Virus record (IMG/VR): IMGVR_UViG_3300020049_016424
Span: 32,001-96,000 of that record
From: a virus
Taxonomy: Duplodnaviria; Caudoviricetes
DNA length: 64,000 nt
Direction: 5' to 3' (one strand)
Both the position numbers and the translations under genes were made by a program. Numbering within the stretch: position 1 is the stretch's first letter; every line of letters starts with the position of its first letter. Of this stretch, positions 40,189 to 64,000 are shown one piece after another. A model generated the notes under the pieces. It ran no database searches and was not told where the DNA came from. It saw nothing but the letters and a program-made list of their open reading frames with translations.

Positions 40189-41252
40189 GCTGCCTCGCGG
40201 TGTTCTCCGAGATCGTACGGGCGCATGAAGATCGTCATGTTGCCCGCAGCCGTCGTCACCGGCCGTTCGTTACGGCCCGGCGTGATGAGCCAAAGCGTCG
40301 GCACATCGATTCGGGTGGTGGGCGCGGTGCACTCGCCGTCGGTGGCGTAGACGACCATGTCGACGCCGAAGCCTTCCTTCTGCTTCTCGACGATGTACGC
40401 GAGCGCCGGGTCGAAGTCCGTACCTCCACGGCCCTTCATGTTGAAATCGATGTCGGTCTCGGCCCTGATCTCTTGCCAAGACTGCACGGCGGCGTCTGCG
40501 TAGATCAGGTAGACCTCGAGCCCGGGGCACTTGCGCAGCAGCTGCTGCAGCTCGCTCATCGCGGCCTGCAGGTCGGCCGTGCCCATGGACCCCGAAGTGT
40601 CGACGACCCACGCGATGCGGTAGCAGAACACCTTCGTGATGCCCGGGAAGAGCGGCACACGGGAGCCGAGGTGGCGCTGCCCTCGCATCGTCAGATGCTT
40701 GGCCATGGCCGCGCGCTGGTTGCTGATGCGGGAATAGCCGCGCTGCCGCTTGGCGTCGACGTAGCGCGCCACCATGGACGCGAAGATCTCGGTCCAGTCG
40801 ACCGTCGCCGGGCGCAGGATGTTCTCGATGAGCTCCATGACGTTCGAGGGCGCGTAGCCGCGATACTTGCTGCCCATGGTCTTCGCCGCGGTCTTGAGGA
40901 CCTTCTTCGCGTGCTGCTCGAGCGCGAGCGCCTGCATCTCGAGGTCTTGCAGCTGCTTGTCGTCGTCTTCCTCCTGGGTGCCGGAGTTGCTCGGACCGGA
41001 CTCCCCCGCGAGCTTCTCGTAGAGGTGGTGCCGCAGGACCTGAACGACCTGCGACAGGAGCGTCTGTTCGACCGTCGACAGCGCCTTGACGTCGGCGTCG
41101 ATGGCTTCGCGCGAGTCGGCACCCGGGTCGAGCTTCAGCACGGCGGCGACGAGCGCTTCGGGGCTGTCGCAGTTCTCGAGATTGGCGAGCCCGAGGATCT
41201 CCATGGGGGAGGCCTGGGTATTGGCGGCGGTATCGTCTTGGATATTGCTCAT
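40185..41252 (-). CDS. VWA-domain protein (DUF2201 C-terminal type)
   Basis: MIDAS VVDTSGSM, GRGGTDF, VYATDG, upstream TVDW motif. Confidence 0.88.
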   Translation of the reverse strand: MSNIQDDTAANTQASPMEILGLANLENCDSPEALVAAVLKLDPGADSREAIDADVKALSTVEQTLLSQVVQVLRHHLYEKLAGESGPSNSGTQEEDDDKQLQDLEMQALALEQHAKKVLKTAAKTMGSKYRGYAPSNVMELIENILRPATVDWTEIFASMVARYVDAKRQRGYSRISNQRAAMAKHLTMRGQRHLGSRVPLFPGITKVFCYRIAWVVDTSGSMGTADLQAAMSELQQLLRKCPGLEVYLIYADAAVQSWQEIRAETDIDFNMKGRGGTDFDPALAYIVEKQKEGFGVDMVVYATDGECTAPTTRIDVPTLWLITPGRNERPVTTAAGNMTIFMRPYDLGEHREAA

Positions 41253-41485
41253 GGAGTAGACTTTCTAGGTAGGGGAGAGGGTAGGTTCTTGTGTTCTTGT
41301 ACCGCGAGAAGTCGCTGTCTTCGGGCAGCGTATGCGGACACGGAGAAGAGCGCGTTGTCCTGTGCAGTGAGTTCTGGCGAAGGCAGAGCTTCGTACTGTG
41401 CGCCAAGAGCGGTGTTCCGTATCCGGAACGGAATACCCGAAAGGGAGCGAATGTAGCGCCAGCGCTGGACGAAGAGGTGCTTCAT
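41249..41485 (-). CDS. MKH-family small protein
   Basis: MKHLFVQRW. Confidence 0.7.
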   Translation of the reverse strand: MKHLFVQRWRYIRSLSGIPFRIRNTALGAQYEALPSPELTAQDNALFSVSAYAARRQRLLAVQEHKNLPSPLPRKSTP

Positions 41486-41694
41486 CGCTGTCTCGTGTGT
41501 TTGTACGCGACTAGCCGGCCCCAGAGGTCTTGCGCGTGTCTCGCACGGTAAGCGGCGTCAAGACCTCGATCGAAGCGCCGGCTTCTAGTGCGGAGTTCTT
41601 GCACGTTCACGAAATCTCCGCATTGTCGCCGTCGATAACGATTCGTAGGGGAGAATGAGTGCGCTTCCCGGGGAGACGTGAACACGTGCTTCAT
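41482..41694 (-). CDS. MKH-family small protein
   Basis: MKHVFTSP. Confidence 0.7.
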   Translation of the reverse strand: MKHVFTSPREAHSFSPTNRYRRRQCGDFVNVQELRTRSRRFDRGLDAAYRARHAQDLWGRLVAYKHTRQR

Positions 41695-41903
41695 TGCGAG
41701 CCCTGCTTGTGCGACTCGAGGCGTGCGAGCAGTTGCGGGCGAAACCCGCTAACGTACAGCGGGCAGCCTTGTAAGTACCGCCGCGCGCGTGTTTCTATCT
41801 CACGTGTCTCAATGATGCGGCCGCACCTGCGCGCTTTGTGCGGATAAATGGAGACCCCTCGCAGCCCGTGGTAGTGCCAGAGCATGGTGAAGGCGTGCTT
41901 CAT
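41691..41903 (-). CDS. MKH-family small protein
   Basis: MKHAFTMLW. Confidence 0.7.
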   Translation of the reverse strand: MKHAFTMLWHYHGLRGVSIYPHKARRCGRIIETREIETRARRYLQGCPLYVSGFRPQLLARLESHKQGSQ

Positions 41904-42106
41904 CGGCGCAAGGCTTGCTTGTACAGGGAGAGGCGGCACAGTAGATCGAGCTGTAGATCGATGTCCAAGGACAAGCCTTTCCGAAGTCGACGGGCCCGCG
42001 GGTAGATCTCTTGTAAGTCGGGGTTTGGCCCGCTCATCCTACGGCGATGCGGGAGGTTGCAACTTCGCAGGGAGTAGGTCCAGCTAGACGCTAGCGCGTG
42101 TTTCAC
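41900..42106 (-). CDS. MKH-family small protein
   Basis: GTG start, KHALASSW. Confidence 0.65.
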   Translation of the reverse strand: MKHALASSWTYSLRSCNLPHRRRMSGPNPDLQEIYPRARRLRKGLSLDIDLQLDLLCRLSLYKQALRR

Positions 42107-42321
42107 GTAGGCGTTCCGTATTTCGAGATCTTGTACTGTTCGAGACGCACGGTGAGCCTGCTTCGCGCAATGATTTGTAGTACGAACGCGTCCTGTGCCG
42201 TGCGTTCCCGTGACATGACCGGATCGTACTGAACGGCGCCACGATGCCCCACCAGGCGCTCGCGCCACGGGTGAGGGGCGTCCAGGGCGTATACCCATGT
42301 GGACACGAAGATGTGCTTCAT
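42103..42321 (-). CDS. MKH-family small protein
   Basis: MKHIFVSTW. Confidence 0.7.
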   Translation of the reverse strand: MKHIFVSTWVYALDAPHPWRERLVGHRGAVQYDPVMSRERTAQDAFVLQIIARSRLTVRLEQYKISKYGTPT

Positions 42322-42524
42322 GAGTTCCTCGCGCTCTTGTAGTCCTGAAGCCGCGTGCGGAGCTCTCTGCGTGCGATACGCCGGGCAATGGCCGCGTTCC
42401 GGTCTCTACGAGCTCGCGTCAAGATGTTTTCTTGCACAAGAAGCTCGGCGACGCGTCGTTCACGAGCAGGAAGCGACGTCTGCCACCCTGTGCGCCACCA
42501 GCGTGAGCAGAATACGTGTTTCAC
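42318..42524 (-). CDS. MKH-family small protein
   Basis: GTG start, KHVFCSRWW. Confidence 0.7.
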   Translation of the reverse strand: MKHVFCSRWWRTGWQTSLPARERRVAELLVQENILTRARRDRNAAIARRIARRELRTRLQDYKSARNS

Positions 42525-42733
42525 GGTGCCGCCTTCTTGGCTAACTGCCAACGGTACAGACGGTGACATAGCGCTTGCTGCGCCGAGTAGACCTGGTGAT
42601 CCCGCGCGCGGTCGCGCTGAGCTCGCGTAGGGATCTCTTCATGCAAGGTGTGCTGGCCCTCGACTCTCCAGCGGTATGGGTCGCCGCGGAGCCAGGTTCT
42701 TCGCATCCACGCGGACGTGAGGATGTGCTTCAT
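42521..42733 (-). CDS. MKH-family small protein
   Basis: MKHILTSAW. Confidence 0.7.
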   Translation of the reverse strand: MKHILTSAWMRRTWLRGDPYRWRVEGQHTLHEEIPTRAQRDRARDHQVYSAQQALCHRLYRWQLAKKAAP

Positions 42734-42960
42734 GGGGGCTCCCGGTGTTCTCGAAGCTGGCGCCGTGCGGCCTTGAAGGTCCACGCCCGCCGTTGGAGGG
42801 CGCAGCGTAGATTGTACTGAAGCCGCGCGGCGCGGGCCTCTCGAGTTTGGAACGTGAGGATGTCGTTGAAGTCGTAGAACGCGCCCACTTGCCGTTGGCG
42901 GAATAGCAACCCGTCTTCCGTGACGTGCCGTGTCCAAGTGGTTACGAAGAGATGCTTCAT
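42730..42960 (-). CDS. MKH-family small protein
   Basis: MKHLFVTTW. Confidence 0.7.
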   Translation of the reverse strand: MKHLFVTTWTRHVTEDGLLFRQRQVGAFYDFNDILTFQTREARAARLQYNLRCALQRRAWTFKAARRQLREHREPP

Positions 42961-43011
42961 GGGGACCTCGAGTTTGTGGGTACGCGGAGGACCGCCTGTG
43001 CGGGAAGCCGT

Positions 43012-43236
43012 TCACTGTCCGGTAACGATACGACGCCATCGCCGCTCTCGTTTTCGGGTCTGAGACCGGGCCTGTAGGTCTCGTCGGCCCGCCAGGGCGA
43101 GCTGGTCGTTGTTCTGGGCTCGGTGCGCCCGTGTGAGGACGTATTCGACGCGAAGCACGCCGCCTTCGGTGCGGTAGAGGAACGGCCCCAGGCTGCCGAC
43201 ACTCCGCACCCAGCGAGTCACAAAGAGATGTTTCAT
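43012..43236 (-). CDS. MKH-family small protein
   Basis: MKHLFVTRW. Confidence 0.7.
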   Translation of the reverse strand: MKHLFVTRWVRSVGSLGPFLYRTEGGVLRVEYVLTRAHRAQNNDQLALAGRRDLQARSQTRKRERRWRRIVTGQ

Positions 43237-43454
43237 CGCAACAACCCTGTGACCCTTGCCTCCCGCCACGCTGTCTTCCGTGCACGGAGGTCACGTCGTG
43301 CGCGTGACGCCGCTATCTCCGCGTCGAACCACTTTTGCGTGCGTGTGGGCACGGTTCGATACGTCACCTGATTCGCCCCGTTGAGGCGATAGGTGTAGCG
43401 CACGCCCGTGTCTGCGTGGCCGCGCTTCCACGGCGAGACGAAGACGTGTTTCAT
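43233..43454 (-). CDS. MKH-family small protein
   Basis: MKHVFVSPW. Confidence 0.7.
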   Translation of the reverse strand: MKHVFVSPWKRGHADTGVRYTYRLNGANQVTYRTVPTRTQKWFDAEIAASRARRDLRARKTAWREARVTGLLR

Positions 43455-43597
43455 GGCGGCGTCTTCTTCTTCTTCTTCAAAAAAAGACCCATGGTGCGCC
43501 ACGCTTCAGGGTAGCTCAGGTACCGATCGTAGGTTCCTTCCCAGCGCTGCCATCCGTACAAGGACTTGCGCCAGGGCGAGACGAAGACATGCTTCAT
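43451..43597 (-). CDS. MKH-family small protein (short, 48 aa)
   Basis: MKHVFVSPW; ends in T7/(GAA)n run. Confidence 0.6.
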   Translation of the reverse strand: MKHVFVSPWRKSLYGWQRWEGTYDRYLSYPEAWRTMGLFLKKKKKTPP

Positions 43598-43809
43598 TTG
43601 GCGGCTGAGTACTGCGCCAGGCGCTGTTGGGCGACCGTGTCCCAGCGCGCAGAGCGAAGCGACGCACATGTCCGCGCGAGATCTTCGAGTCGCCAGGCGC
43701 GGGTAAGAACCGCTTGTGTGCAAATGTATCGCCCTTCGTGGCGCTTTCGGTGATAACGCCCTTCGCGTAGGGAGAATCGTACCCATCGAGAGGTGAAGAT
43801 GTGCTTCAT
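43594..43809 (-). CDS. MKH-family small protein
   Basis: MKHIFTSRW. Confidence 0.7.
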   Translation of the reverse strand: MKHIFTSRWVRFSLREGRYHRKRHEGRYICTQAVLTRAWRLEDLARTCASLRSARWDTVAQQRLAQYSAAK

Positions 43810-44009
43810 GTGCGGCCCCGTTTGAAGAAGACAACGCGATACGCGAGGGCTTTGCGGGCATGGCATGCGTCGCGTATAGCGAGATAGGCGCGGCCCGCAG
43901 AATCTTGAACGATGCGGCGTTCGTAGATAGCGAAACATCGTCGCGTACGACCCCGCACTGTGCTCGTGAACTGCGTGCGCGTCCAGGCCCCTACCATAAC
44001 GTGCTTCAT
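43806..44009 (-). CDS. MKH-family small protein
   Basis: MKHVMVGAW. Confidence 0.7.
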   Translation of the reverse strand: MKHVMVGAWTRTQFTSTVRGRTRRCFAIYERRIVQDSAGRAYLAIRDACHARKALAYRVVFFKRGRT

Positions 44010-44170
44010 CGACGCGCCAGTTTGTATCTTAGAAGGCGGGTGCGTAGTTGGACGCGCGCAGTCACACGCGCGTTCTCTTGCGCAAGAAGCTCGGCGAAAC
44101 GTCGTTCACGAAAAGGGAACTGCGCCCACTGCTCTGCGCGCCACTCGCGTGTGCAGAATACGTGTTTCAT
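44006..44170 (-). CDS. MKH-family small protein (54 aa, below ORF-track cutoff)
   Basis: MKHVFCTREW...RERRFAELLAQEN; close paralog of 42318-42524. Confidence 0.65.
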   Translation of the reverse strand: MKHVFCTREWRAEQWAQFPFRERRFAELLAQENARVTARVQLRTRLLRYKLARR

Positions 44171-44361
44171 GTGCCCCTCCGTTCGTGAAGCCTGTTCAAG
44201 ATCCCACTACGGGAGCCGTACTCCCCTAGGTACTTACGCGACGCTCGCGTATCCACCCAGGTGAACTCCATGTGAATATCGATGACGTACCGGCGACGGT
44301 ATCGCCGTCCGTTCGCCACAACGTACGCGAACTCCCACAGAGATACGAATACGTGCATCAT
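44167..44361 (-). CDS. MKH-family small protein
   Basis: MMHVFVSLW. Confidence 0.7.
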   Translation of the reverse strand: MMHVFVSLWEFAYVVANGRRYRRRYVIDIHMEFTWVDTRASRKYLGEYGSRSGILNRLHERRGT

Positions 44362-44561
44362 GGACCGCGTCCCACAGCAAGGCGGTCACGCAGGTGTTCG
44401 AGGAGCACCGCCCGCGTGCTTTGTGCGTAAAACTCGCGCCCCTCTTTGTTCATGACGTGCCGCCAGGACAGGGCGAACTTCCCGGCATACCGAAGACGTA
44501 CCGTGATCTGGGCGTCGGTAATGTACTGTATCTTCCACGGCGTCACAAAGGTGTGTTTCAT
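44358..44561 (-). CDS. MKH-family small protein
   Basis: MKHTFVTPW. Confidence 0.7.
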   Translation of the reverse strand: MKHTFVTPWKIQYITDAQITVRLRYAGKFALSWRHVMNKEGREFYAQSTRAVLLEHLRDRLAVGRGP

Positions 44562-44794
44562 GATCCTCGCCTTTCCCGGCGACGCCGCTCTGCCAGAGTT
44601 CGGTAACGGATCTGCTGCTGGCGGGCCAGGCAGCCGTCGTTGAACTCACGCCCCGCGCGGTTGAGGATCCTATCGACCTCAACCCAGGTGGTGCCCCCGC
44701 GCTGGCCGGTGCCAGCCACGTGTCGCGTTCGATGGAAGACGCCGCCTTCACAGCGATTCCGAGTCTGCCACGCGCTCACAAAGACGTGTTTCAC
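44558..44794 (-). CDS. MKH-family small protein
   Basis: GTG start, KHVFVSAW. Confidence 0.7.
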   Translation of the reverse strand: MKHVFVSAWQTRNRCEGGVFHRTRHVAGTGQRGGTTWVEVDRILNRAGREFNDGCLARQQQIRYRTLAERRRRERRGS

Positions 44795-45021
44795 GGCCCT
44801 TGCCTCCGGATGGCGCGGCGCCAGTCTAGGTTTTTGTTTCGCGCGTCCTGCGCGAGCTCTTCGTTGTTTAGGTCGCGCCCCGCAAGGTCCAGCACCCGCA
44901 CGCATTCAGTGTACCTGCCCGAGAAAATATCATACCCCCAGGACACTTCTCGAATGCGGTCTCGAGTCCCTGAAGACGGGTTGAACTCTTCGCGCCAGGA
45001 CGTAGCGAGGGCGTGTTTCAC
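44791..45021 (-). CDS. MKH-family small protein
   Basis: GTG start, KHALATSW. Confidence 0.7.
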   Translation of the reverse strand: MKHALATSWREEFNPSSGTRDRIREVSWGYDIFSGRYTECVRVLDLAGRDLNNEELAQDARNKNLDWRRAIRRQGP

Positions 45022-45251
45022 AGCTCCTTATCCAGAAAGGAGTCGCGCCGCAGCAGTAACAGCAGGCGATAGTCCTGCTGCTGGTTGTGCGCGAGCCTGT
45101 CGAGAGCGTCCTTCTGCCCCGCACGATCGAGCACGTATTCCGCTTCGCGGTACCCGCGGGCCTTGTAGTGGAGCGTACGTACACGTTCTCGAAAGCCCTG
45201 TCCGCGCGGATGATCTTGAATCCGCCACGAGCTGACAAATACGTGGATCAT
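45018..45251 (-). CDS. MKH-family small protein
   Basis: MIHVFVSSW. Confidence 0.7.
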   Translation of the reverse strand: MIHVFVSSWRIQDHPRGQGFRERVRTLHYKARGYREAEYVLDRAGQKDALDRLAHNQQQDYRLLLLLRRDSFLDKEL

Positions 45252-45490
45252 GGTGGAAGTCTTTCTCTAGGGAGTTGTTGCTTTTTTCGATCAAGAAGCC
45301 GGGCCACAAGTCGCCGATGTTGGCGCCTTTCTTCTTCTCGACGAGATCGAGCACGGCCTGCGGCGTTGGGCACGATGTACATATCGTGCCAGGGCCGCCC
45401 GTCTTCTGCCCAGCACGATACGCTGCGCACGTGCTTGAAGATATCGTTGAACTGTACCCGCTCCCAAGGCTCTGTGAACACGTGCTTCAT
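45248..45490 (-). CDS. MKH-family small protein
   Basis: MKHVFTEPW. Confidence 0.7.
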   Translation of the reverse strand: MKHVFTEPWERVQFNDIFKHVRSVSCWAEDGRPWHDMYIVPNAAGRARSRREEERRQHRRLVARLLDRKKQQLPRERLPP

Positions 45491-45663
45491 GGCAACCTGT
45501 GTGTTCTCCGTGCGAACGCCTGCTCGCGCAGAGCGCACCGCGCCATGTACTCTGCGCGCCGTTGGTGAAGCTCCCGCCCGGCAACATCCAGTACGCTGCG
45601 GGTGGCAGCATCATAGGCGTTTTCGGGAACGCGCACCCAACGAGTCACAAAGACGTGCTGCAT
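45487..45663 (-). CDS. MKH-family small protein (58 aa, below ORF-track cutoff)
   Basis: MQHVFVTRW...VLDVAGRE. Confidence 0.65.
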   Translation of the reverse strand: MQHVFVTRWVRVPENAYDAATRSVLDVAGRELHQRRAEYMARCALREQAFARRTHRLP

Positions 45664-45866
45664 CGGTCCCGCACTTTTTTGAGCTGTTGGAGACGCCCCT
45701 CGCGCTCCCAGCGAATTATCTCGCGGGTATGCCGCGCGTGAATGGCGCGCCCTACGGCGTCTGTGACCACGCGATACTGGTACCTGCTATGTGCGAATCG
45801 TACCTGCCGCCGCACGCCTGTGATCTCAGAATTTCGGACCCAAGCATTTACAAACGCATGCTTCAT
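45645..45866 (-). CDS. MKH-family small protein
   Basis: MKHAFVNAW. Confidence 0.7.
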   Translation of the reverse strand: MKHAFVNAWVRNSEITGVRRQVRFAHSRYQYRVVTDAVGRAIHARHTREIIRWEREGRLQQLKKVRDRCSTSL

Positions 45867-46066
45867 AGTGGCACGCCTCGTCGAGCGCGCGCGGCGCGCT
45901 GCCGCGCGTCAAGCTGCGCATCTCCGACAAGCAGAGTTTCCCACTCTCGTCCGGCCCGGTTCCGTACAAGGCGGTAGGTCAGGGTTCCATTCTCATAGCG
46001 GCGGTCGTGCTGCACATCCTGTAGGAAGGGGCAGCGGCGCCAAACAGTAGCGAACACATGTTTCAT
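45863..46066 (-). CDS. MKH-family small protein
   Basis: MKHVFATVW. Confidence 0.7.
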   Translation of the reverse strand: MKHVFATVWRRCPFLQDVQHDRRYENGTLTYRLVRNRAGREWETLLVGDAQLDARQRAARARRGVPL

Positions 46067-46278
46067 GAATACCGCTCCCATACGTAAGCCGTGTGGCGTC
46101 GTTGCAGCGCGTTGAGCAGGTCTTCGTACTCCCAGTGTCGCAACACGGCACGTCCCGCTGTAGTTCTGCGAAGACGGATGGTTCGCTGCCGCCCCTCCGT
46201 GCGCGCCTCTTGCACCAACAGGCCGTGCGGGGTGTGCGAGACCCAAGAGGCCCATGGAGACGTCAGGACATGCTTCAT
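46063..46278 (-). CDS. MKH-family small protein
   Basis: MKHVLTSPW. Confidence 0.7.
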   Translation of the reverse strand: MKHVLTSPWASWVSHTPHGLLVQEARTEGRQRTIRLRRTTAGRAVLRHWEYEDLLNALQRRHTAYVWERYS

Positions 46279-46478
46279 ACGACCTCTCGTCGGTGCCGCT
46301 GCAGGCGTAGACAAAGCATGATGCGATATCGGACGGGGTCCAGGACGAGAAGCGTCTCTAAGGTTCGCCGCGGCGAGCCGCCCTGTGGGAAGAGCTCGTC
46401 CCACTCTCCTGCCTTTCGCAGGCGCGTGTCTCCGGGCGATGTAGACATAGCCCACAAGGACACGAAGACATGTTTCAT
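46275..46478 (-). CDS. MKH-family small protein
   Basis: MKHVFVSLW. Confidence 0.7.
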   Translation of the reverse strand: MKHVFVSLWAMSTSPGDTRLRKAGEWDELFPQGGSPRRTLETLLVLDPVRYRIMLCLRLQRHRREVV

Positions 46479-46759
46479 GGCGGGTCTCGCAGCAGCCACA
46501 GGGTCAGCCGTCGCTGTAGGGCCTTACGTGCATTGAAAGTATGGAGGGTGGCGGTGCTGGAGGTTCGTATTTCCACGGGCTCAGGGGCTCTCCGCATAGA
46601 AACAGAGAGTGCCTCCATATGCCAGAGTTTGCGTCCCCAGGCGTCCACGTACAGGTAACGACTTTGGAAGTAAAAGCGGCAGTGGCGGAACTCCCGGGCG
46701 AACTCGCCACTACCCACCGCCATCGCCGTCTCCCATTTCCCCATCAGCGCATGTTTCAT
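46475..46759 (-). CDS. MKH-family small protein
   Basis: MKHALMGKW. Confidence 0.7.
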   Translation of the reverse strand: MKHALMGKWETAMAVGSGEFAREFRHCRFYFQSRYLYVDAWGRKLWHMEALSVSMRRAPEPVEIRTSSTATLHTFNARKALQRRLTLWLLRDPP

Positions 46760-47055
46760 GGCAGAGCCCTTTTCCGCGTGGAGCAGGCGTTGGTGTGGCG
46801 GCGAAGAAGCGCACCCTGCGCTTCTATGCGATGAATGACCATCACATCTCGGTCGCAGGCGACTCGGGACAGGGGAGTGCCCCATACCGCGCCTTGCCAA
46901 GGGAGTTCCCACCTCCAAGTAACGTCTCCTTGAGGTCCTCGAAGCAGGTGTTGCGTCTCCGTGTGCCCTTTGCGTAGCACGCGGTAGCGGCAGCTACGGG
47001 TTCCCAGGATCATATTCGGGGGAAAGGCCCAGGGCCCTACGAAGGTGTGCTTCAT
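46756..47055 (-). CDS. MKH-family small protein
   Basis: MKHTFVGPW. Confidence 0.7.
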   Translation of the reverse strand: MKHTFVGPWAFPPNMILGTRSCRYRVLRKGHTETQHLLRGPQGDVTWRWELPWQGAVWGTPLSRVACDRDVMVIHRIEAQGALLRRHTNACSTRKRALP

Positions 47056-47345
47056 GTTGGCACCTTAGGCTTTCGTGTGGGAGAGGCAAAAAGACGTGCT
47101 CGAAGTGCCTGACGAGCTTCTGCAATGCGCTGTCTGTGTAAGTACTCCGAGGATGGAGGTTTATCCGCGTAGGGAACGGGGATGTTGCGTAGAATCGTAG
47201 GATCTTCCGCGGTCCAGCACACGACACCGTGAATGTCTGCGTAGAACCATCGGTATTCCCACCAGAAGGTGCCCGTCGGGCGCCGCCGCGTGCAAACCCC
47301 CCAAAAAAGATGACGCTCCCAAGGGCCTACAAACGCGTGTTTCAT
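47052..47345 (-). CDS. MKH-family small protein
   Basis: MKHAFVGPW. Confidence 0.7.
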   Translation of the reverse strand: MKHAFVGPWERHLFWGVCTRRRPTGTFWWEYRWFYADIHGVVCWTAEDPTILRNIPVPYADKPPSSEYLHRQRIAEARQALRARLFASPTRKPKVPT

Positions 47346-47635
47346 GTTTTCCACTTCCAGCGGCGGAGTCGGGCCCTCCGCGTGAGCTCCTGGCGCGCTT
47401 TTACTGCGTAGTAGTCTAGAACTATGGTGTCGTGAGGAGGATGCTTCGAGACGCGTTCACCCAGAAACCGCAAGGGCGTATCTGCGTTCCGAATCCACAC
47501 CACGTCCCCCTGTCTTGTGCGCTGCAAGCAGCGAGCTTCTACCGCGTATCCCGCCCCACGCGACTGTCGACCCATCACGCCGAGGTAGCTGCCTGGCGGG
47601 TGCGTGTACCACCTGGCAACGAAGACGTGTTTCAT
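47342..47635 (-). CDS. MKH-family small protein
   Basis: MKHVFVARW. Confidence 0.7.
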   Translation of the reverse strand: MKHVFVARWYTHPPGSYLGVMGRQSRGAGYAVEARCLQRTRQGDVVWIRNADTPLRFLGERVSKHPPHDTIVLDYYAVKARQELTRRARLRRWKWKT

Positions 47636-56375: not shown

Positions 56376-56395
56376 GACTACATGTCTCTGACATA

Positions 56396-56584: not shown

Positions 56585-56814
56585 GGCGACTCCTGCCTCT
56601 GCTGATGTCGGCGGCGTGCAAGACGCATGTGGATCGAGTACTCCAGGTCATGGCGCACCCAGAAATCTAAATAATACCCCGAGTACCCCCAAGTGGAGCG
56701 GTACCGGTACTGCGCAAGGCTGTAGTGCCCGTCTCCCATTTGTCGCAAATACCGCAGCTCGGTTCCTGCCAGCAGGCTCTTCTCCCACGAGCCCCGCACA
56801 AATGCGTGCATCAT
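56581..56814 (-). CDS. MKH-family small protein
   Basis: MMHAFVRGSW. Confidence 0.7.
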   Translation of the reverse strand: MMHAFVRGSWEKSLLAGTELRYLRQMGDGHYSLAQYRYRSTWGYSGYYLDFWVRHDLEYSIHMRLARRRHQQRQESP

Positions 56815-57011
56815 AGGCGCCCCCTCCAAGCCGCTAGTCGTTGCCGCAACGCGGGTTCGGCGAGGCGACGGTCCGTAGTGCGTGTGTAATACCCCGCGTA
56901 CCCCTCAAAAGACAAGTACCGCCACTGGAGGTCCCAGTCGGCCGTGGCGCGGTACTCGCAATGCGCGTCAAGCGCTAGGTTCCATGTCCCCGGGACGAAT
57001 ACGTGCATCAT
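56811..57011 (-). CDS. MKH-family small protein
   Basis: MMHVFVPGTW. Confidence 0.7.
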   Translation of the reverse strand: MMHVFVPGTWNLALDAHCEYRATADWDLQWRYLSFEGYAGYYTRTTDRRLAEPALRQRLAAWRGRL

Positions 57012-57226
57012 CGGGCCTCTGTAGATTCTGTGCGGGATAGCGCCCACCACAGCCGTATGCCGACAGTAGGCTCCTCGCGCCTGCGCACGGCTATGTCCAG
57101 GTAATACCCTGCAAAGCGTTCGTAGGACAGAAAACGCCGTTGGGCTGCGGACCAGGTCGTTACGCGAAACTGCTCGAAAGCCAGCGGGTCGTCCTGCCAG
57201 GGCCCGCGAAGGAAGGTGTGGATCAT
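57008..57226 (-). CDS. MKH-family small protein
   Basis: MIHTFLRGPW. Confidence 0.7.
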   Translation of the reverse strand: MIHTFLRGPWQDDPLAFEQFRVTTWSAAQRRFLSYERFAGYYLDIAVRRREEPTVGIRLWWALSRTESTEAR

Positions 57227-57438
57227 CGGGCATGCTTCTGAAATCGAAAGTGGATCATCTTTCGAAACAAAAGTGAAGGCTCCGCCTGGTTGCGTAGGGA
57301 GTACTCGGAATAGAACCCCGACAACCCGTGATCGGATAAAACGCGCATTTGCAACCCCCACGCGATTGTGTGCCGGCAATCACAACACGAAAGTCCGGGC
57401 ACACGCTTCCAGGACCCCTCAACGAATGTGTGCATCAT
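57223..57438 (-). CDS. MKH-family small protein
   Basis: MMHTFVEGSW. Confidence 0.7.
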   Translation of the reverse strand: MMHTFVEGSWKRVPGLSCCDCRHTIAWGLQMRVLSDHGLSGFYSEYSLRNQAEPSLLFRKMIHFRFQKHAR

Positions 57439-57647
57439 TACTTCCTCCTGGCTCTGTACCGAATATGGCGTTCTTGGAAAGAGGGTTCTGCTCTATTTCG
57501 AGCGTCATATGTGGGGTAGTACCCCGCGTAGTTGTTGCGGGACTTGACACGATACATGAGCGTCGCCCACACGCTACGGCGCACCTCATGTGCATCTCCA
57601 ATATTGCCTTTACTCCGCCAGGGCCCTCGAATGAATACGTGCATCAT
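57438..57647 (-). CDS. MKH-family small protein
   Basis: MMHVFIRGPW. Confidence 0.7.
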   Translation of the reverse strand: MMHVFIRGPWRSKGNIGDAHEVRRSVWATLMYRVKSRNNYAGYYPTYDARNRAEPSFQERHIRYRARRK

Positions 57648-57856
57648 TGGTATTTTCCCATGCGGTACCGATAGTGCCGGGCAACGAGGGAAGGCTCTGC
57701 GTCCCGACGCGCATTGTACGTAGGGTAGTACCCGCTGCGGCCCTGAAAAGACGGATAGCGCCTCTGAGGGCTGCTCCAGCGCGTGTTCCGCCATGCGGCT
57801 GCCCCGGACGGATATGAAACCTGCGCCCAAGGTCCTTGTAGAAACGTGTGGATCAT
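57644..57856 (-). CDS. MKH-family small protein
   Basis: MIHTFLQGPW. Confidence 0.7.
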   Translation of the reverse strand: MIHTFLQGPWAQVSYPSGAAAWRNTRWSSPQRRYPSFQGRSGYYPTYNARRDAEPSLVARHYRYRMGKYQ

Positions 57857-58044
57857 GGGGTCCTTCGCCTTCGGCGTTCGAGATCTGGTTCTGCGGCCAG
57901 GCGCGCTGCGAGGGTCCTGTAGTACCCGCTGCGGGCCTCCCCGGACCGGAGGCGGTATTGCCGCCCCCACACGGTGAGGCGCCAGTCCACGATCGTGCGA
58001 ACGCCAGGAGAGGACCAACCAGAGCGCAAGAACGTATGAATCAT
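57853..58044 (-). CDS. MKH-family small protein
   Basis: MIHTFLRSGW. Confidence 0.7.
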   Translation of the reverse strand: MIHTFLRSGWSSPGVRTIVDWRLTVWGRQYRLRSGEARSGYYRTLAARLAAEPDLERRRRRTP

Positions 58045-58244
58045 TCCTTGCCTCGGTATATGAACAAACGGGTACGCAAAGAGGGCTCTGCGGTGTTCCG
58101 ATCTATGAGGGTGTGGTAGTACCCGCTGAGGCCTTGAGGAGACGCGTACCGCCGCGCGTAGCCCCGCGCGGTCCAGCGATGTTCGATGCCCCGTAGGACC
58201 GAGTCCGCGCGTCTCCAAGACTCTTTGACAAACGCGTGTTTCAT
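58041..58244 (-). CDS. MKH-family small protein
   Basis: MKHAFVKESW. Confidence 0.7.
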   Translation of the reverse strand: MKHAFVKESWRRADSVLRGIEHRWTARGYARRYASPQGLSGYYHTLIDRNTAEPSLRTRLFIYRGKE

Positions 58245-58510
58245 GGCGCCTTCCCCTTGCGCTGCTTGTACGCAAGCAAACGGCCGAACAGCGCCGAGTT
58301 CACCTGGAGAGGCTGGGTGTGCCATACGACGTCCGGCGCCCCTACCCCGTTCATCTGGATATTGATCGTGATGTAATTATGGATCTGGGCCCCTAGAGAC
58401 ATCGAAGTCTTCCTGTACCCACTCCAGTTACCCGATGTGGGCGCGTGCTTGTGCTCGATGATTCCCAAGAACGGATGCTTCCAAGGCTGCATGATAAACG
58501 CATGTTTCAT
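58241..58510 (-). CDS. MKH-family small protein
   Basis: MKHAFIMQPW. Confidence 0.7.
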   Translation of the reverse strand: MKHAFIMQPWKHPFLGIIEHKHAPTSGNWSGYRKTSMSLGAQIHNYITINIQMNGVGAPDVVWHTQPLQVNSALFGRLLAYKQRKGKAP

Positions 58511-58755
58511 GGTAGCTTCTTTCTGGTGCCGAGGAGGGCTCGCCATTCGCGAGCAGAGATCGAGGATTCGATGGCTAGGGCACGACGCCGCGCCGCAGCG
58601 AAGTCCCACGCCAGCTTCACGGGGGATACTTGGCGTCGCAGGGCTCCGCGAGCCAAAAAGTCTCGACGGGCAGCAATCACCTCCTGGCTTCGTACGTACA
58701 CGGCAGATTCATGCACGAAGAGGACGCTTCGCGGAAAGAGGTGTCTCATCGTCAT
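58507..58755 (-). CDS. MKH-related small protein (MRHLFPR variant)
   Basis: MTMRHLFPR. Confidence 0.65.
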   Translation of the reverse strand: MTMRHLFPRSVLFVHESAVYVRSQEVIAARRDFLARGALRRQVSPVKLAWDFAAARRRALAIESSISAREWRALLGTRKKLP

Positions 58756-58952
58756 CTCCGAATGCGCCAGGAGATATACCGAAGGCGTAAGACGGGCTCG
58801 GCGTTATCCCGAGCTCGGAGGGTCAGGTAATACCCAGACAAGCCTTGGCGGGATGCGTAGCGATTCTCAGTGGAGAAGCGCGTGTCTCGCAATAACCGAA
58901 AACTCGACGCCGTCCCGTTCTTCCACGTCCCTTGTGTGAAGGTGTGCTTCAT
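58752..58952 (-). CDS. MKH-family small protein
   Basis: MKHTFTQGTW. Confidence 0.7.
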   Translation of the reverse strand: MKHTFTQGTWKNGTASSFRLLRDTRFSTENRYASRQGLSGYYLTLRARDNAEPVLRLRYISWRIRR

Positions 58953-59245
58953 CAGGGTCTCCTAGGGCGCTTGCCGAGGACGCCTTGTCGCGCAGCAGCG
59001 TGGGCTGCCGTGTCGGCATTGCGACGCAATACCCACAAGGATATGTGCTTACCGGTATGGTTCCCGTAACGTGTGTGCAGTAGGACTTCGTCTGCGGACC
59101 GCGCGGCGCTGGTCGGGTAGCTGCCTGCGCGACCCTCCCAGGACAGGTAGCGTATCCAGATACGAGGACTGTCCCGCTGGCATCGGGTTTCTTCGTAAGC
59201 CCCCTGGGGGCGAACCCACAGCCCCGTAACGAATGCATGCATCAT
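58952..59245 (-). CDS. MKH-family small protein
   Basis: MMHAFVTGLW. Confidence 0.7.
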   Translation of the reverse strand: MMHAFVTGLWVRPQGAYEETRCQRDSPRIWIRYLSWEGRAGSYPTSAARSADEVLLHTRYGNHTGKHISLWVLRRNADTAAHAAARQGVLGKRPRRP

Positions 59246-59550
59246 ACGGGCCTCTTCCGGGCCGGCCTCTCGCCGAAGACGCCTTGTTGCGCCGCAACGT
59301 GCGCGAGACGGTCTCCCTCGCGCAGCATCCGGCTGAGCTCGGGCTCGCGCCCCGTGTACCGCCAAAACCGCAGATAGAGCGATGGTTCCGCAGCAGTGCG
59401 CGCCTCCGTGTCCACGTAAACGCCAGTTGTTGCCCCGGTGGAGGACAGGTACCGCACGGCATCGCGGGTACGTGGCGGGCGATGCTGTCGGCGTTCTACA
59501 GCAACCCCCCCGAGACGCCGCCAGGGCCCATCGTAGAAGGCATGGATCAT
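59242..59550 (-). CDS. MKH-family small protein
   Basis: MIHAFYDGPW. Confidence 0.7.
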   Translation of the reverse strand: MIHAFYDGPWRRLGGVAVERRQHRPPRTRDAVRYLSSTGATTGVYVDTEARTAAEPSLYLRFWRYTGREPELSRMLREGDRLAHVAAQQGVFGERPARKRPV

Positions 59551-59849
59551 GGTGCTCTCCGTGCGAGGGGTGGGATACCGAGTGCCCCCTCCGCGGCGGC
59601 ACGGACGGCCCTTTCGTGGGCGCGCCACTGCAAGATCGTCAGAGAGACGACGCGGTCAAACCGCTCTGCGTACCGCATGTCTAGCGAGGGCTCTGCGCGC
59701 ATCCAAGCCTCCCACGAAGAATAGCGCCCGCCTCGGCCCCACCAAGAGCGGTACCGAATCCAGCAGTAGGTGTCCCGTTGCCGCAATGCACGGATCTCCC
59801 CGGGGAGGCCTGTGGACACCCAACGCCCTTCCACGAATGCGTGGACCAT
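59547..59849 (-). CDS. MKH-family small protein
   Basis: MVHAFVEGRW. Confidence 0.7.
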   Translation of the reverse strand: MVHAFVEGRWVSTGLPGEIRALRQRDTYCWIRYRSWWGRGGRYSSWEAWMRAEPSLDMRYAERFDRVVSLTILQWRAHERAVRAAAEGALGIPPLARRAP

Positions 59850-60097
59850 CAGCGGGGCCGCCGTGCGCGGTGCGCAGGGATCACGCCGAAGAGTCGGCGC
59901 TGCTCCTCGAGAGGAAGCGTGTGAAGCGCCGCCGCCGCGGCTAGCGTGCGCTTGGTGAGGTATTGCCCGATTTCGTACAAAGGCCGGTTCAGGGCCTTGG
60001 CGTAGCGGGCCAGGCGGGCTCGGACGTGTGCCAGGTGCGCTTCTGCAAACGCCATGCGGGCGCTCGTCGGGGGCTCTCTGGGGAATAGATGTCTCAT
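59849..60097 (-). CDS. MKH-related small protein (MRHLFPR variant), first gene of array 2
   Basis: MRHLFPRE with strong AGGAGGA RBS. Confidence 0.65.
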   Translation of the reverse strand: MRHLFPREPPTSARMAFAEAHLAHVRARLARYAKALNRPLYEIGQYLTKRTLAAAAALHTLPLEEQRRLFGVIPAHRARRPR

Positions 60098-60129: not shown

Positions 60130-61770
60130 GTGCCTCAAGTCCATATTACGGGCTCCCAGTGGGTCCAATCCCATATCTACCTTGGAGGCAAGCCGTTTTC
60201 CCTCGACGACTTCCCGTTCTACACGGACATCTACGATCAGGTGCATCAGGCGATGGTTCTGATGACCTGTCGACAGGTCGCCAAGTCGACGACGATCACG
60301 AATCTCATCACGCAGAACTCGTGCTTGCGGCCGCACTGGCGCAGTCTGTTTGTGGCGCCCACGCAGGAGCAGACAGCGCGTTTCAGCCAGACCCGTCTCA
60401 GCAAGGCACTGCATCTCAGCCCGCGCTTGCAGGGGCGCTGGGTGACGCCCGATCTCTCGAGCCGTGTTTTCCTCAAGATGTTCAAGAACGGCTCCGAAGT
60501 GGCGCTCTCGTACGCCTCTGACGACCCGGACCGTATCCGCGGCATCTCAGCCGACGAGGTTTTCTACGATGAGGTGCAGGACATCGTCTACGACGAGGTC
60601 ATCCCGGTCGTCAACGAGGTGCTCTCACAGAGCGACTACAAGTTCGAGCGCTACTGCGGCACCCCCAAGACGATGGAGGCGTCGCTCGAGAAGCTCTGGC
60701 AGTGGAGCACGCAGACCGAGTGGATGATCCGGTGCCCCGGTTGCAGCAAGTTCTCCGCCCTCATCGACGACAAGTGCATTGGCAAGAACGGCCCGATCTG
60801 TGTCGCGTGCGGCGCCTACCTCGACGTCCGGGCCGGCATCTGGATCGATCACCAGGCCTATGGCCCGAGCCACCAAGGCAAGCAGCTCAAGGGCTACCAC
60901 ATCAGCCAGATGATGCTGCCGAAGAACGTGCCGATCTCGATGCCGGGGGACTCGCGGAGCCAGGAGCTCGCGCAGCGACGTTGGAAGAGCCTCCTCGACA
61001 AGTACGTGACGTACCCGCCGAGCAAGTTCAAGAACGAGGTCATCGGCCGCAGTGACTCGAAGGGCGCGCGGCTGCTCACGCGAGAAGAGCTCGAGGCCTT
61101 CTGCACCGACCGTGTGATCTCGGAGTACCCAGACCCCGGGCACACGTACGACTACCTCGTGGCAGGCGTCGACTGGTCTGGAGGCGGCGGTGAAGGTAAC
61201 TCGCTCACGGCGCTTTGGATCTGGGGCGTACGGCGCGCGGGCGGGCTGCACCGCATCGTCCTCGACACCGTGTACTCCAAGATCTACTCCGAGAACAACC
61301 CCATCTCCGGACAGATCATCGAGGACATCATCACCAAACTGACACACTTCAACGTTGACCTGGTGATTGGTGACGCCGGCGGGGGCGCCCTCGCCAACGA
61401 CTACCTGCAGGAGGCGTTGGGCAGGAACAAGGCTCGGCAGGTGCAGTACCGCCAGACCGCGAATGCCAGCGCCGGACGCCCTCCGTTCTACTGGAACAAG
61501 CTCGACCGGTACATGGCCGAGAAGACGACCATGATCGACCATTTCTTCGTTTACGTGAAGAACGGGGGCGTGCGGTACGCGAACGTGCCGCAGATGAGCG
61601 AAGCGTTCTCGCACATGCTTTCGGTCTACGAGGACCAGTCGAACAACGGGCAAAAGATCTGGAAGCGTACCACTGGCGAGCCCGACGACGCGCTGCACGC
61701 TCAGGTGTTCGGATGGATCGCGGCGAACGTAATCGTGGGTAACGGGATGTTCACCGAGGAGATCGGCTAG
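60130..61770 (+). CDS. terL: Terminase large subunit (lambda GpA-like)
   Basis: Walker A CRQVAKST, Walker B VFYDEVQD, GTP coupling motif, CPGC/CVAC Zn site, nuclease AGVDWSG and PDDALHA. Confidence 0.88.
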   Translation: MPQVHITGSQWVQSHIYLGGKPFSLDDFPFYTDIYDQVHQAMVLMTCRQVAKSTTITNLITQNSCLRPHWRSLFVAPTQEQTARFSQTRLSKALHLSPRLQGRWVTPDLSSRVFLKMFKNGSEVALSYASDDPDRIRGISADEVFYDEVQDIVYDEVIPVVNEVLSQSDYKFERYCGTPKTMEASLEKLWQWSTQTEWMIRCPGCSKFSALIDDKCIGKNGPICVACGAYLDVRAGIWIDHQAYGPSHQGKQLKGYHISQMMLPKNVPISMPGDSRSQELAQRRWKSLLDKYVTYPPSKFKNEVIGRSDSKGARLLTREELEAFCTDRVISEYPDPGHTYDYLVAGVDWSGGGGEGNSLTALWIWGVRRAGGLHRIVLDTVYSKIYSENNPISGQIIEDIITKLTHFNVDLVIGDAGGGALANDYLQEALGRNKARQVQYRQTANASAGRPPFYWNKLDRYMAEKTTMIDHFFVYVKNGGVRYANVPQMSEAFSHMLSVYEDQSNNGQKIWKRTTGEPDDALHAQVFGWIAANVIVGNGMFTEEIG

Positions 61771-62386
61771 TCCGTTTTCCCTGATTACCCGGAGTAGATA
61801 CTGCGGCTGCCAACGGCCATCCTGCGCGCAACCGCCATTTCAATGTAGTGACGCTGATTCCGACATCTCGCGCCCATTCGGTAGCAGGCTTTGTTGTATT
61901 TTCATGCGTGATTTGCAGCACATCTCTGCGGTTTTGCAGGTTCTCTTTTTGCGTAACCCAGCGGCAGTTTTCTTTGCAGTAGTTGCCATTTGTGTCGACC
62001 CGGTCAAGCTGGTATTTTGGAGGGCAGGGGCCCATGTCCGCCAGGAATGTGTGGATGTCGCCCCACTCCGGACACACGCAAATACCACGACCGCCGTAGT
62101 TGGCGTATCCCGTTGCGGCAGGGTTCGTACAGCGCCGATGCATATCTTTCCACTGCTGATATACGCGAGTGTTGCTCTTTCCGTGCACGTACCTGCGCGG
62201 TTTCGTCCGACGAGAACACGCGGAGCACATGTCGTTCCGTTCTAGATTGGATTTGGATTGCAACTTTTCGGTTCCGCATCCGGGACACGCTGCGCGAAAC
62301 AGCGCTACGCCTCGTAGTGTGCGGTGTCCGGAGAAAACAGGATTTATCCAAGCTGTGGCAAAGGGCTCGGCCGTATTATTGCGCAT
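61751..62386 (-). CDS. HNH homing-endonuclease-like protein
   Basis: WKDMHRRC, NYGGRGICVCPEW, LDRVDTNGNYCKENCRWVT, C-terminal HTH; lower GC. Confidence 0.85.
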   Translation of the reverse strand: MRNNTAEPFATAWINPVFSGHRTLRGVALFRAACPGCGTEKLQSKSNLERNDMCSACSRRTKPRRYVHGKSNTRVYQQWKDMHRRCTNPAATGYANYGGRGICVCPEWGDIHTFLADMGPCPPKYQLDRVDTNGNYCKENCRWVTQKENLQNRRDVLQITHENTTKPATEWARDVGISVTTLKWRLRAGWPLAAAVSTPGNQGKRTSRSPR

Positions 62387-62454
62387 AGTTATTACCTCCT
62401 AGGGTCTTTGAAGACGTGCTTCATGCGCGCCGAGCCCGCAGTACAGGGCATCCC

Positions 62455-62781
62455 TTAGGCACTTCGCGGGCACCAGGCATGGCGTGCCTCCCGGAGCTCG
62501 TCGCGGCGCTCAGACACCACCTCCAACAGTTCACCACCAAACACTGCGCCGGAGTACGGCACACCGGCGGATGCAAACGCTGTTGGGCGCAGAAAACGGC
62601 CGGAGGTAGTGCTCGGACTCTGCGCAAACTCCGCGTGCTCTATCGCGAGATCAAGGCAGGTGCGTCCGAACGTGTCGTATACCCAGCCCCGAGTTTCGAC
62701 GTAGTCCGTGTGGAGCACAGAACGAAGCTGGACATGGGGCGACGTACTGATCCGCCATGCAGTTACGAAAGCGTGCTTCAT
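62455..62781 (-). CDS. MKH-family small protein
   Basis: MKHAFVTAW. Confidence 0.7.
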   Translation of the reverse strand: MKHAFVTAWRISTSPHVQLRSVLHTDYVETRGWVYDTFGRTCLDLAIEHAEFAQSPSTTSGRFLRPTAFASAGVPYSGAVFGGELLEVVSERRDELREARHAWCPRSA

Positions 62782-62784
62782 TTT

Positions 62785-63093
62785 CTAGCCTCGCTCTTTT
62801 CGGTGGGCCAAGCGCCAGTGCACAGGAAAGACCCGCTTGCCTCCAAAGCAAGTCCCATGGATCTCAGGAGCGGCCAGGGAGTACGCGGAAGCGCTGGGCT
62901 TGTGTCGTCCCCGAGAGATCCACCGCAGGGGCGTGCCCAAGAGGCAGTTGTAGCGCGTGTGCAGTTCCGGACGGCCATGTACATCCCATTGCCACTCTCG
63001 GAGCTCTACGCGCCCATTACGCAGCCCCATGAGGCGCAGCTCCCCGGTGGAGGTTTTCACACGGCGCCAGGGGCCTATAAAGACATGCTTCAT
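62785..63093 (-). CDS. MKH-family small protein
   Basis: MKHVFIGPW. Confidence 0.7.
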   Translation of the reverse strand: MKHVFIGPWRRVKTSTGELRLMGLRNGRVELREWQWDVHGRPELHTRYNCLLGTPLRWISRGRHKPSASAYSLAAPEIHGTCFGGKRVFPVHWRLAHRKERG

Positions 63094-63416
63094 CGGACCG
63101 GTTGCGGTAGCGCTGCGCGCCGGCGTTGCAACTTCTCCCTAGGTGTCTGGTGCCCTACGCCGTCGAACTCCAGCCCTGGAGGGGCACTTCTGTGCGCGAA
63201 TGCGGCGGGCCGTATTGCGTGCCCTGCGAGCCGTGCCCGCGTGTGGGCCGTCACGTACTGGCCTAAACGAAGGGAGGCTCGTCCGAACTCGTCGTACCCC
63301 CAGTACCGCGTTTCCGCGACACCTGCGTGCTTGCGACCCGGGGGTGTGTTGCAGAGTCGATTCTCTGTATGCGTGAGCAGCCCCCGCCCCCAAGCCTGTA
63401 CAAATGCGTGTTTCAT
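63090..63416 (-). CDS. MKH-family small protein
   Basis: MKHAFVQAW. Confidence 0.7.
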   Translation of the reverse strand: MKHAFVQAWGRGLLTHTENRLCNTPPGRKHAGVAETRYWGYDEFGRASLRLGQYVTAHTRARLAGHAIRPAAFAHRSAPPGLEFDGVGHQTPREKLQRRRAALPQPVR

Positions 63417-63736
63417 GGAGAGTCCTCCTTGAAGGCCGCGCGGCGCAGAAGCTGCGTTGTCTTGGGTGGCGTGCAGGATATTCCGCCAAAGTCCATCCCG
63501 TATTTAGGCACCCCGGGTTTTGCGTAACTGGCTTTGCGCTTCGCGCGCCCAGGGCTGGAAAACGCGCATCCCGTGAAAAGCCAGTGGGTGATCAGTTCGG
63601 CCCGCCCAAAGACATCCCACTCCCAGTACCGTACTTCACCAAGAGGAGGGTTGACGGACCCCCTTCCAAGTAACACTCGGATCTCGTCGGCGGGGCTGGC
63701 GCCGCGCCGCCACGGCCCCACGAAGGCGTGTTTCAC
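63413..63736 (-). CDS. MKH-family small protein
   Basis: GTG start, KHAFVGPW. Confidence 0.7.
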   Translation of the reverse strand: MKHAFVGPWRRGASPADEIRVLLGRGSVNPPLGEVRYWEWDVFGRAELITHWLFTGCAFSSPGRAKRKASYAKPGVPKYGMDFGGISCTPPKTTQLLRRAAFKEDSP

Positions 63737-64000
63737 TTCTCACCTCGCCGGAGTTTGTGGCTGCTGAGCCGCACAGTAAGCGGCGGAAGATAGCAATGTC
63801 CAAAGATGGACCCTGCGGGGGACGGACCACTTGCAGTATAGGATGAGCCGGGACGGGTCGGCACCGCAGGGCCCCCGGTGTGTCGCACGGAAGTTTCTTC
63901 AAAACGGAGCTGTTGACGTCCGAACATATCAAAGCACCATATTCGGGATTCTCGCCGTGCGTGCGTGTGCACAAAAAACCGCTCTTGTTCTACGCTCAAG
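63733..64000 (-). CDS. MKH-family small protein (start outside window)
   Basis: WCFDMFGRQQL matches the array-3 motif; GTGA overlap with the next unit. Confidence 0.6.
   Translation of the reverse strand, partial: LSVEQERFFVHTHARRESRIWCFDMFGRQQLRFEETSVRHTGGPAVPTRPGSSYTASGPSPAGSIFGHCYLPPLTVRLSSHKLRRGEK

Follow-up and report, generated by a model that had tools for sequence, protein, structure and literature searches.

Tandem arrays of small genes are already known in large phages. Phages G and 121Q, for example, each carry arrays of more than 30 similar small genes, which have been interpreted as the result of tandem duplication (Hua et al. 2017, PMC5646251). Large phages in general carry many arrays of tiny genes with no assigned function. 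We describe here an extreme case, in which a single family accounts for approximately one-eighth of a phage genome. The stretch of DNA analysed (64,000 nucleotides, hereafter the window) comprises bases 32001-96000 of the 182,833-base-pair (bp) IMG/VR virus record IMGVR_UViG_3300020049_016424, which has a G+C content of 64.7% and is rated complete by CheckV. Genome-wide, the family includes 87 head-to-tail units distributed over five arrays, all on the minus strand. Together they occupy 21,816 bp (11.9% of the genome), and the median unit length is 77 amino acids (aa). As in phages G and 121Q, these are long head-to-tail runs of small related genes of unassigned role in a large phage. They differ in belonging to an unrelated family, in the number of copies and arrays and in the fraction of the genome occupied, and in that one array splits a conserved gene. 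In addition, the phage G and 121Q copies are 'very similar' whereas the best paralogs here reach at most about 52% identity over most of their length. The family is new; it is unusual for the number of its copies and the fraction of the genome that they take up, as well as for their age, the weak constraint on them and the splitting of a gene.

The units also correspond to the general description of phage tandem multigene arrays: they are neighbouring paralogs arranged head to tail on one strand, and their copy content differs between closely related genomes. In this they recall the poxvirus 'genomic accordion' (PMC3953438), where a viral gene family changes by tandem gain and loss; here too, whole-unit differences separate nearly identical strains. 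Accordion copies are, however, recent, almost identical and generated under acute selection, whereas those described here are old and diverged. Another point of comparison is provided by the T4 internal proteins IPI, IPII and IPIII, which counter host restriction and have only a capsid targeting sequence in common (PMC3012670). The array units resemble these in having a short common N-terminus on diverse, small and basic phage proteins.

An earlier reading of the window (the original prediction) had proposed some 70 units in three minus-strand arrays, called A, B and C here (Table 1), with 30, 34 and six or more units, respectively. Units were found in all three places. In array A exactly 30 were counted. 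The position of array B was also correct; its count was revised to 31 units with the strict motif defined below, four units in apparent gaps (where the fifth residue is Tyr or Trp or the second is Val) and one 8-codon remnant. Array C is represented in the window by four complete units, a fifth that is cut by the window boundary and a remnant of 10 codons (62392-62424), and the full array has seven units. The genome-wide total is larger than had been claimed and includes an additional region outside the window (arrays D/E).

Units were sought in the window by scanning for a start codon, any codon and a His codon followed by an open frame. This identified 68 candidates on the minus strand, 64 of them within the arrays, and three on the plus strand. 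Minus-strand units starting with the motif M-[K/M/I/R/Q]-H-[V/A/T/I/L]-[F/L/M] lie at the positions originally predicted. With a start codon and with the Trp residue included, this strict motif occurs 77 times in the genome, always within an array and on the minus strand; no occurrence was found outside the arrays on either strand of the whole genome. Three groups can be distinguished in array B: the GYY/AEP type, longer units that have a QGVFG.RP helix at the C-terminus, and two divergent members that start MRHLFPR.

The units are tightly packed. Among the 86 junctions, 64 are 4-nucleotide NTGA overlaps (55 ATGA, eight GTGA and one TTGA) and four are 1-nucleotide overlaps. A GGAG/GAGG/AGGA core lies 4-16 nucleotides upstream of 45 of the 87 starts (52%), compared with 9.5% at random array positions. 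Both the overlaps and the ribosome binding sites had been anticipated in the original prediction. This anatomy suggests that each array would be translated as a chain, the ribosome terminating at the NTGA overlap and restarting on the next unit, probably aided by the Shine-Dalgarno core within the last codons of the previous one. Even decayed units are in frame: an 8-codon open reading frame (ORF), a 32-aa unit and a 48-aa unit all remain chained to their neighbours. Maintenance of an open chain therefore seems important, but three cases are too few to serve as proof. Neither sigma-70 promoters nor intrinsic terminators are in excess over shuffled sequences inside the arrays, and an Rfam scan of the whole window returned no family.

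The family is real and protein-coding. Its 7185 codons contain no in-frame stop, where about 175 would be expected from the off-frame rate, and BLASTP places 74 of 81 units in a single cluster. The motif is written with different codons in this 81-unit set (AAG 35 and AAA 27, CAC 58 and CAT 23, TTC 39 and TTT 27). The same is true of conserved columns: Arg is encoded by CGA, CGC, CGG and CGT in both of the arrays examined (in array A also by AGA and AGG), Ser by TCN and AGC, and Leu by CTN and TTR. Such a variety of synonymous codons at conserved columns excludes a repeat or RNA element that is maintained at the nucleotide level only. The alignment of the 81 units shows no variation at M1 and H3 and very little at W9, R20 and one C-terminal Arg. 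Together with the synonymous codon spread this indicates selection on the peptide, as had been supposed.

The proteins are basic and diversified, again as foreseen: Arg represents 14.9% of residues compared with 6.3% in the other genes of the phage, and Trp 3.3% compared with 1.1%, with a median isoelectric point of 10.8 and a median net charge of +8. Trp occupies position 9 or 10, its proposed usual place, in 77 of the 81 units counted. Two other parts of the original prediction need to be modified. It had described the remainder of each protein as simply hypervariable, and the N-terminus as a constant leader on an unrelated body. In fact several positions past the N-terminus are conserved. 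The subfamily alignments have in common M1, H3, F5, W9/10, an ExR about 10 residues further on and a second ExR. This pattern (MKHxFxxxW + ExR + ExR) spans approximately 40-55 residues and is predicted to form a beta-sheet followed by a helix. It continues into motifs specific to each subfamily: RYxSxxGxxGYY...R..AEPxL..R in array B, whose longer members end in the QGVFG.RP helix; ExRxWxYDxFGR in array C; and ExR followed five residues later by R-x-A-R in array D. The C-terminal helices vary among subfamilies.

In an AlphaFold model generated from the 81-sequence alignment, three long strands are followed by a helix and, beyond a disordered segment, by a final helix. Block means of the predicted local distance difference test (pLDDT) are 80-93 for residues 1-50, and the first 56 residues, including the N-terminus, form one confident beta-sheet unit. 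A model of an array B unit (pLDDT 78.7) shows a hairpin and two helices, with residues 1-10 unplaced. From the two models together, the N-terminus is likely to be a strand of the sheet. The conserved residues are found at i, i+2 spacing (H3, F5, W9; E-x-R), from which we infer that they share one face of the sheet.

Searches for relatives were extensive. The original prediction had not recognised the family, and no database family matches it. Scans of representative units against Pfam, PHROGs, PADLOC and NCBIfam gave no consistent match, and none to a defence or anti-defence family in the last three. Pfam searched with all 81 units at E values of up to 10 was also without a consistent match, and none was to PC4 or PurA. 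An exhaustive hidden Markov model (HMM) search of 1.84 billion representative proteins with an array B profile gave 22 matches; of those that were examined and traced, all but one (an unrelated repeat protein) belong to this genome or to strains nearly identical to it. Three word-indexed searches of 5.8 billion clusters (with A, B and C/D profiles) found few proteins, and those traced were again from this genome or its strains. A profile search of PDB sequences gave no match. The family thus appears to be new and, in the searches made, without sequence relatives outside this phage lineage.

Structure comparison provided a lead rather than a finding. Foldseek returned nothing at E <= 0.001 against PDB and BFVD. 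Exhaustive structural alignment included among its top rows PC4 (6ycs_A; Z 5.0, root-mean-square deviation (rmsd) 5.0, 60 residues aligned, below the Z 8 guide), a bacterial PC4 homolog (5a4n_A, Z 4.7), Pur-alpha (3nm7_A, Z 4.6), the PC4-like protein of phage T5 (PDB 4bg7, Z 3.9) and MoSub1. A feature search of the ESM Atlas gave no usable match, and the Atlas's own model of a unit is poor; PC4 and PUR clusters were also returned there, with template modelling (TM) scores of 0.35-0.44. The same families therefore head two independent structure searches. The resemblance to PC4, Sub1 and Pur-alpha lies in a similar size, in the prediction of an antiparallel sheet with a helix after it, and in strands that carry basic and aromatic residues. 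Against it are the low scores (Z of only 3.9-5.0, rmsd 4.4-5.9 Å), the lack of a Pfam match among the 81 units and the array B model, which aligned only with other small folds (Z 2.8 or less) and did not recover PC4 or Pur-alpha. A possible similarity to small beta-sheet nucleic-acid binders does agree with the composition of the proteins.

To follow the evolution of the arrays, strain loci were taken from about 10 samples (the exact protein of one unit is indexed in 26 assembly blocks). They are 98.4-100% identical to the record genome over aligned stretches, except for one replaced unit (approximately 90%). Within the genome, the best paralog of a unit is located no more than three ranks away in 58 of the 87 cases and in the same array in 79. 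Nearest paralogs are thus adjacent and yet only distantly similar (about 52% identity at most over an alignment covering most of a unit), which indicates that the arrays expanded by local duplication a long time ago. The proposed course is local tandem duplication followed by deep divergence, with change continuing through deletion of whole units, insertion, and exchange of individual units for divergent alleles.

Strains differ by the gain or loss of whole units. Comparison of unit content between related phages, proposed earlier as a check, revealed a difference of three units: strains L006 and L007, otherwise 98.9-99.8% identical to this genome, carry three extra units (70, 97 and 107 aa; 794 bp) at one junction. 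In this genome they have been deleted in frame between two CAC triplets (microhomology), leaving the 8-codon ORF. Substitutions between strains are clustered, with 17-19 in single units of about 220 bp and none in most units, a pattern suggesting that divergent alleles have replaced individual units. In the unit with the most changes, substitutions are mainly transitions and occur at all four bases, without being adenine-specific. A six-base in-frame indel between strains is also observed at window positions 43462-43467, in the KKKKK codons of the 48-aa unit.

The phage belongs to a distant, uncultured lineage: its large terminase is only 28.6% identical to that of Salmonella phage Arash, the nearest cultured phage by this protein. 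Very large genes, one with an M23 peptidase domain, occupy the plus-strand half of the window, and the arrays lie in the minus-strand half. The order of the latter is: DNA polymerase A (upstream of array C), array C, an HNH gene, the terminase gene (on the opposite strand), array B, an AAA_5 ATPase, two opposite-strand genes, the N-terminal part of a zincin-VWA gene, array A, the VWA part, a 192-aa ORF and a retron-type reverse transcriptase (RT). Downstream of array D are a primase-like gene and a DUF927 helicase. Feature coordinates are listed in Table 1.

Table 1. Coordinates of the arrays, individual units and neighbouring genes (window positions unless marked genome)
Feature	Position	Strand	Description
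Array A	41249..47934	-	30 chained units, 48-100 aa
Array B	52357..60097	-	About 35 units in positional subfamilies, plus in-frame remnants
Array B gap units	59547-59849 (MVHAF), 53594-53830 (MKHIY), 55435-55698 (MKHVW), 55169-55438	-	Motif variants
Array C	62392..64000, on to window-equivalent 64685	-	Units of about 105 aa, 7 in full array
Arrays D/E	genome 168969-175132	-	Fourth region, 14 units
8-codon mini-ORF MMHPKELP	55695..55721	-	In-frame deletion scar; ATGA overlaps kept at both ends
32-aa unit	52581..52679	-	Internal in-frame deletion; still chained to neighbours
Zincin-like (HExxH) peptidase N-part	47931..48794	-	DUF2201_N profile 43-135; AR9 g029 residues 92-156
VWA C-part of same gene type	40185..41252	-	DUF2201_N profile 188-257 and DUF2201 VWA-like domain; AR9 g029 residues 255-463
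AAA_5 (MoxR-like) ATPase	51019..52281	-	Directly downstream of array B, 76-nucleotide gap
192-aa ORF	39610..40188	-	Chained between VWA part and RT
Retron-type RT	38672..39610	-	Last chained gene after array A
HNH endonuclease	61751..62386	-	Adjoins array C remnant; convergent with terminase gene
Large terminase (GpA_ATPase)	60130..61770	+	Between arrays B and C

Array A is of particular interest. In Bacillus phage AR9 the gene after an AAA ATPase (g028) encodes a single 474-aa protein (g029), a 'zincin-like protease fused to vWA domain' annotated behind an early promoter. The phage described here has the same module, with the DUF2201_N and DUF2201 domains. However, the two ORFs flanking array A match successive parts of the AR9 protein and separate parts of one Pfam model, which places the array inside what is a single gene elsewhere. 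On the basis of these matches, array A (6.7 kb, 30 genes) splits a zincin-VWA gene that is single in AR9, the cut being located between AR9-equivalent residues 156 and 255; two opposite-strand genes separate it from the ATPase instead of the direct neighbourhood found in AR9. The array occupies this conserved gene without breaking the translation chain: its first unit overlaps the stop of the zincin part by ATGA, its last unit overlaps the start of the VWA part in the same way, and from the zincin part to the RT the genes overlap without exception. Between strains, the 192-aa ORF is more polymorphic than any other gene of the region (25 variant sites, 43.5 per kb), with a ratio of nonsynonymous to synonymous polymorphism (pN/pS) of 0.31.

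Several observations concern the neighbouring genes themselves. The HNH gene overlaps the 3' end of the terminase gene by 20 nucleotides, has a G+C content at third codon positions (GC3) of 0.57 and looks like a later insertion that truncated array C. A search for related loci with the VWA protein found none. The equivalent search with the AAA protein found one 4-kb low-GC fragment (L005, IMGVR_UViG_3300033148_009492), which is without the unit start motif. It encodes an AAA ATPase with 42% identity to the present one and, after it in convergent orientation, a homolog of the 231-aa gene located at window 50241-50936; this gene pair is thus conserved far beyond the present lineage. Strain L009 aligns on both sides of window 49883-50337 but not across it (approximately 455 bp here versus 80 bp there), and a 92-aa gene called in strain L008 within this interval is not in the L009 gene list.

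The best reading, which we hold with moderate confidence at about an even chance, is that this is a lineage-restricted family produced by tandem duplication, whose basic proteins, encoded among replication genes, probably bind nucleic acid. The conserved His, Phe and Trp residues and the Glu/Arg pairs, placed at i, i+2 on the predicted strands, would together with the positive charge form a sheet face able to bind nucleic acid or an acidic partner. The variable remainder might then provide a repertoire directed against host or defence targets. By analogy, the context of replication genes and of genes of the early type in AR9 points to non-structural proteins, probably expressed early or in the middle of infection. 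If the proteins are indeed a repertoire of nucleic-acid or defence binders, the arrays would be a rich source of new small effectors.

A number of points weigh against this reading. The array proteins are known here from their genes alone. The fold matches are below the level considered meaningful for the tool (Z < 8), those of the array B model are weaker still and Foldseek gave none. A conserved face with a variable remainder is not usual for diversified binders, in which it is the binding surface that varies. No recent paralog pairs are present, and only loss and replacement of units, not active 'accordion' amplification, have been seen. Finally, a pN/pS approaching 1 and flat codon usage would also be compatible with products of little importance.

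This last point leads to the alternative that the units are translated filler. Duplicated DNA would serve to fill a headful-packaged capsid, and the ORFs would be kept open so that the downstream genes (VWA, RT and AAA) escape polarity, the proteins themselves mattering little. The units do evolve under weak constraint. Among strains their pN/pS is 0.73; neighbouring genes taken together have a value of 0.26, and the large terminase gene one of 0.06. Polymorphisms are distributed 40/44/36 over the three codon positions with no third-position excess. There is hardly any codon bias: all four array groups have a GC3 of 0.67, which stays flat over the length of the unit, while other genes tested have values of 0.83-0.92 (the HNH gene excepted). 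A low GC3 confined to unit starts and ends, keeping the mRNA unstructured, is excluded by this flat profile. The three decayed units, all in frame and chained, are also what filler would predict, and tandem duplication has been put forward as a way in which the genomes of jumbo phages expand (Hua et al. 2017, PMC5646251). The peptide-level selection on M1, H3, W9, R20 and the C-terminal Arg argues in the other direction, as does the comparison of motif and body constraint that had been suggested earlier: pN/pS is lower in codons 1-10 (0.43) than beyond (0.78). So do the confident fold obtained from the family alignment and the fact that arrays C and D are not tightly chained to essential downstream genes as array A is. 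We consider filler unlikely, though less so than the alternatives that follow. If the arrays were mostly filler, they would illustrate the growth of phage genomes and the way in which new proteins can originate from weakly constrained frames. Either answer would inform the function of other small-gene arrays.

A T4-type capsid tag is short and N-terminal, and ends in a conserved prohead-protease cleavage site. The array proteins could, in principle, be virion cargo of this kind, their N-terminus targeting them to the capsid for packaging and injection against host defences. A conserved N-terminus on a diverse basic remainder would fit, and the T4 internal proteins are a precedent for diverse, defence-countering proteins united only by their targeting sequence (PMC3012670). 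But no cleavage-type conserved residue follows the motif in five subfamily or family alignments, conservation extends into the body, and one model includes the N-terminus in the fold. Moreover, the arrays lie among replication and early-type genes and not head genes, and 87 different cargo species, compared with the few of T4, would be without precedent. By analogy with AR9, a non-structural role fits the gene context better than capsid cargo, which we judge improbable.

The position of arrays A and B raises a further alternative: that MKHxF..W is a docking or processing signal and the units are clients of the AAA ATPase and zincin-VWA proteins encoded beside them. Array B stops just short of the AAA gene, and the two parts of the zincin-VWA gene are chained to either end of array A. 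Neighbourhood alone is, however, weak evidence. Other genes adjoin arrays C and D, the AAA and fused zincin-VWA pair of AR9 has no such array annotated beside it, and a position inside a split gene resembles an insertion accident more than a designed linkage. We would give this proposal only a small probability.

Little more can be claimed for a combined proposal, to which we also assign a low probability. Here the arrays would constitute a library of about 87 variants built on a conserved face (His3, Phe5, Trp9 and the Glu/Arg pairs) that is read by the AAA/zincin-VWA machine or by nucleic acid, while the variable part addresses host or defence targets. One version of it concerns the Met-Xaa-His start. 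The amino-terminal Cu/Ni (ATCUN) motif requires that the N-terminus be free and that the third residue of the mature protein be a His. All 87 units have His3, as the search was defined in this way, and 86 of them carry K, M, I, R, Q or L at position 2, which should block removal of Met. In this version the start might be an ATCUN-type site, and the units would be metal-bearing nucleic-acid binders served by a MoxR/VWA-type chaperone.

It is scarcely credible that the chained RT drives diversification by copying unit RNA with errors and reinserting it to create or mutate units: the RT does close the array A chain and between-strain divergence is focused on single units, but the enzyme is of the retron type and not of the diversity-generating retroelement type, the changes in the most altered unit are mostly ordinary transitions, recent paralogs are lacking and the other arrays have no adjacent RT. 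The RT type and the mutation spectrum also exclude the units as targets of a diversity-generating retroelement. Precursors of ribosomally synthesized and post-translationally modified peptides (RiPPs) were rejected as well: conservation is not confined to a leader, and the neighbouring genes (AAA, zincin-VWA, RT, HNH and terminase) include no RiPP enzyme family.

Two minor features were noted downstream of array A. The first is a non-coding stretch of about 500 nucleotides just downstream of the RT gene (window 38161-38659, minus strand), which is repeated in inverted orientation approximately 93 kb away with 95.7% identity (genome 163260-163767; locus L020, 3261-3768). It folds better than shuffled sequences (z -2.8) and has a long C/U-rich tract as well as a perfect AU-rich hairpin. 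This repeat could be the non-coding RNA of the RT or a small mobile element. The second is a perfect 12-bp hairpin with T-rich flanks (window 36365-36392), located just past the last minus-strand gene of the block, which is likely to be a two-way terminator closing the array A operon.

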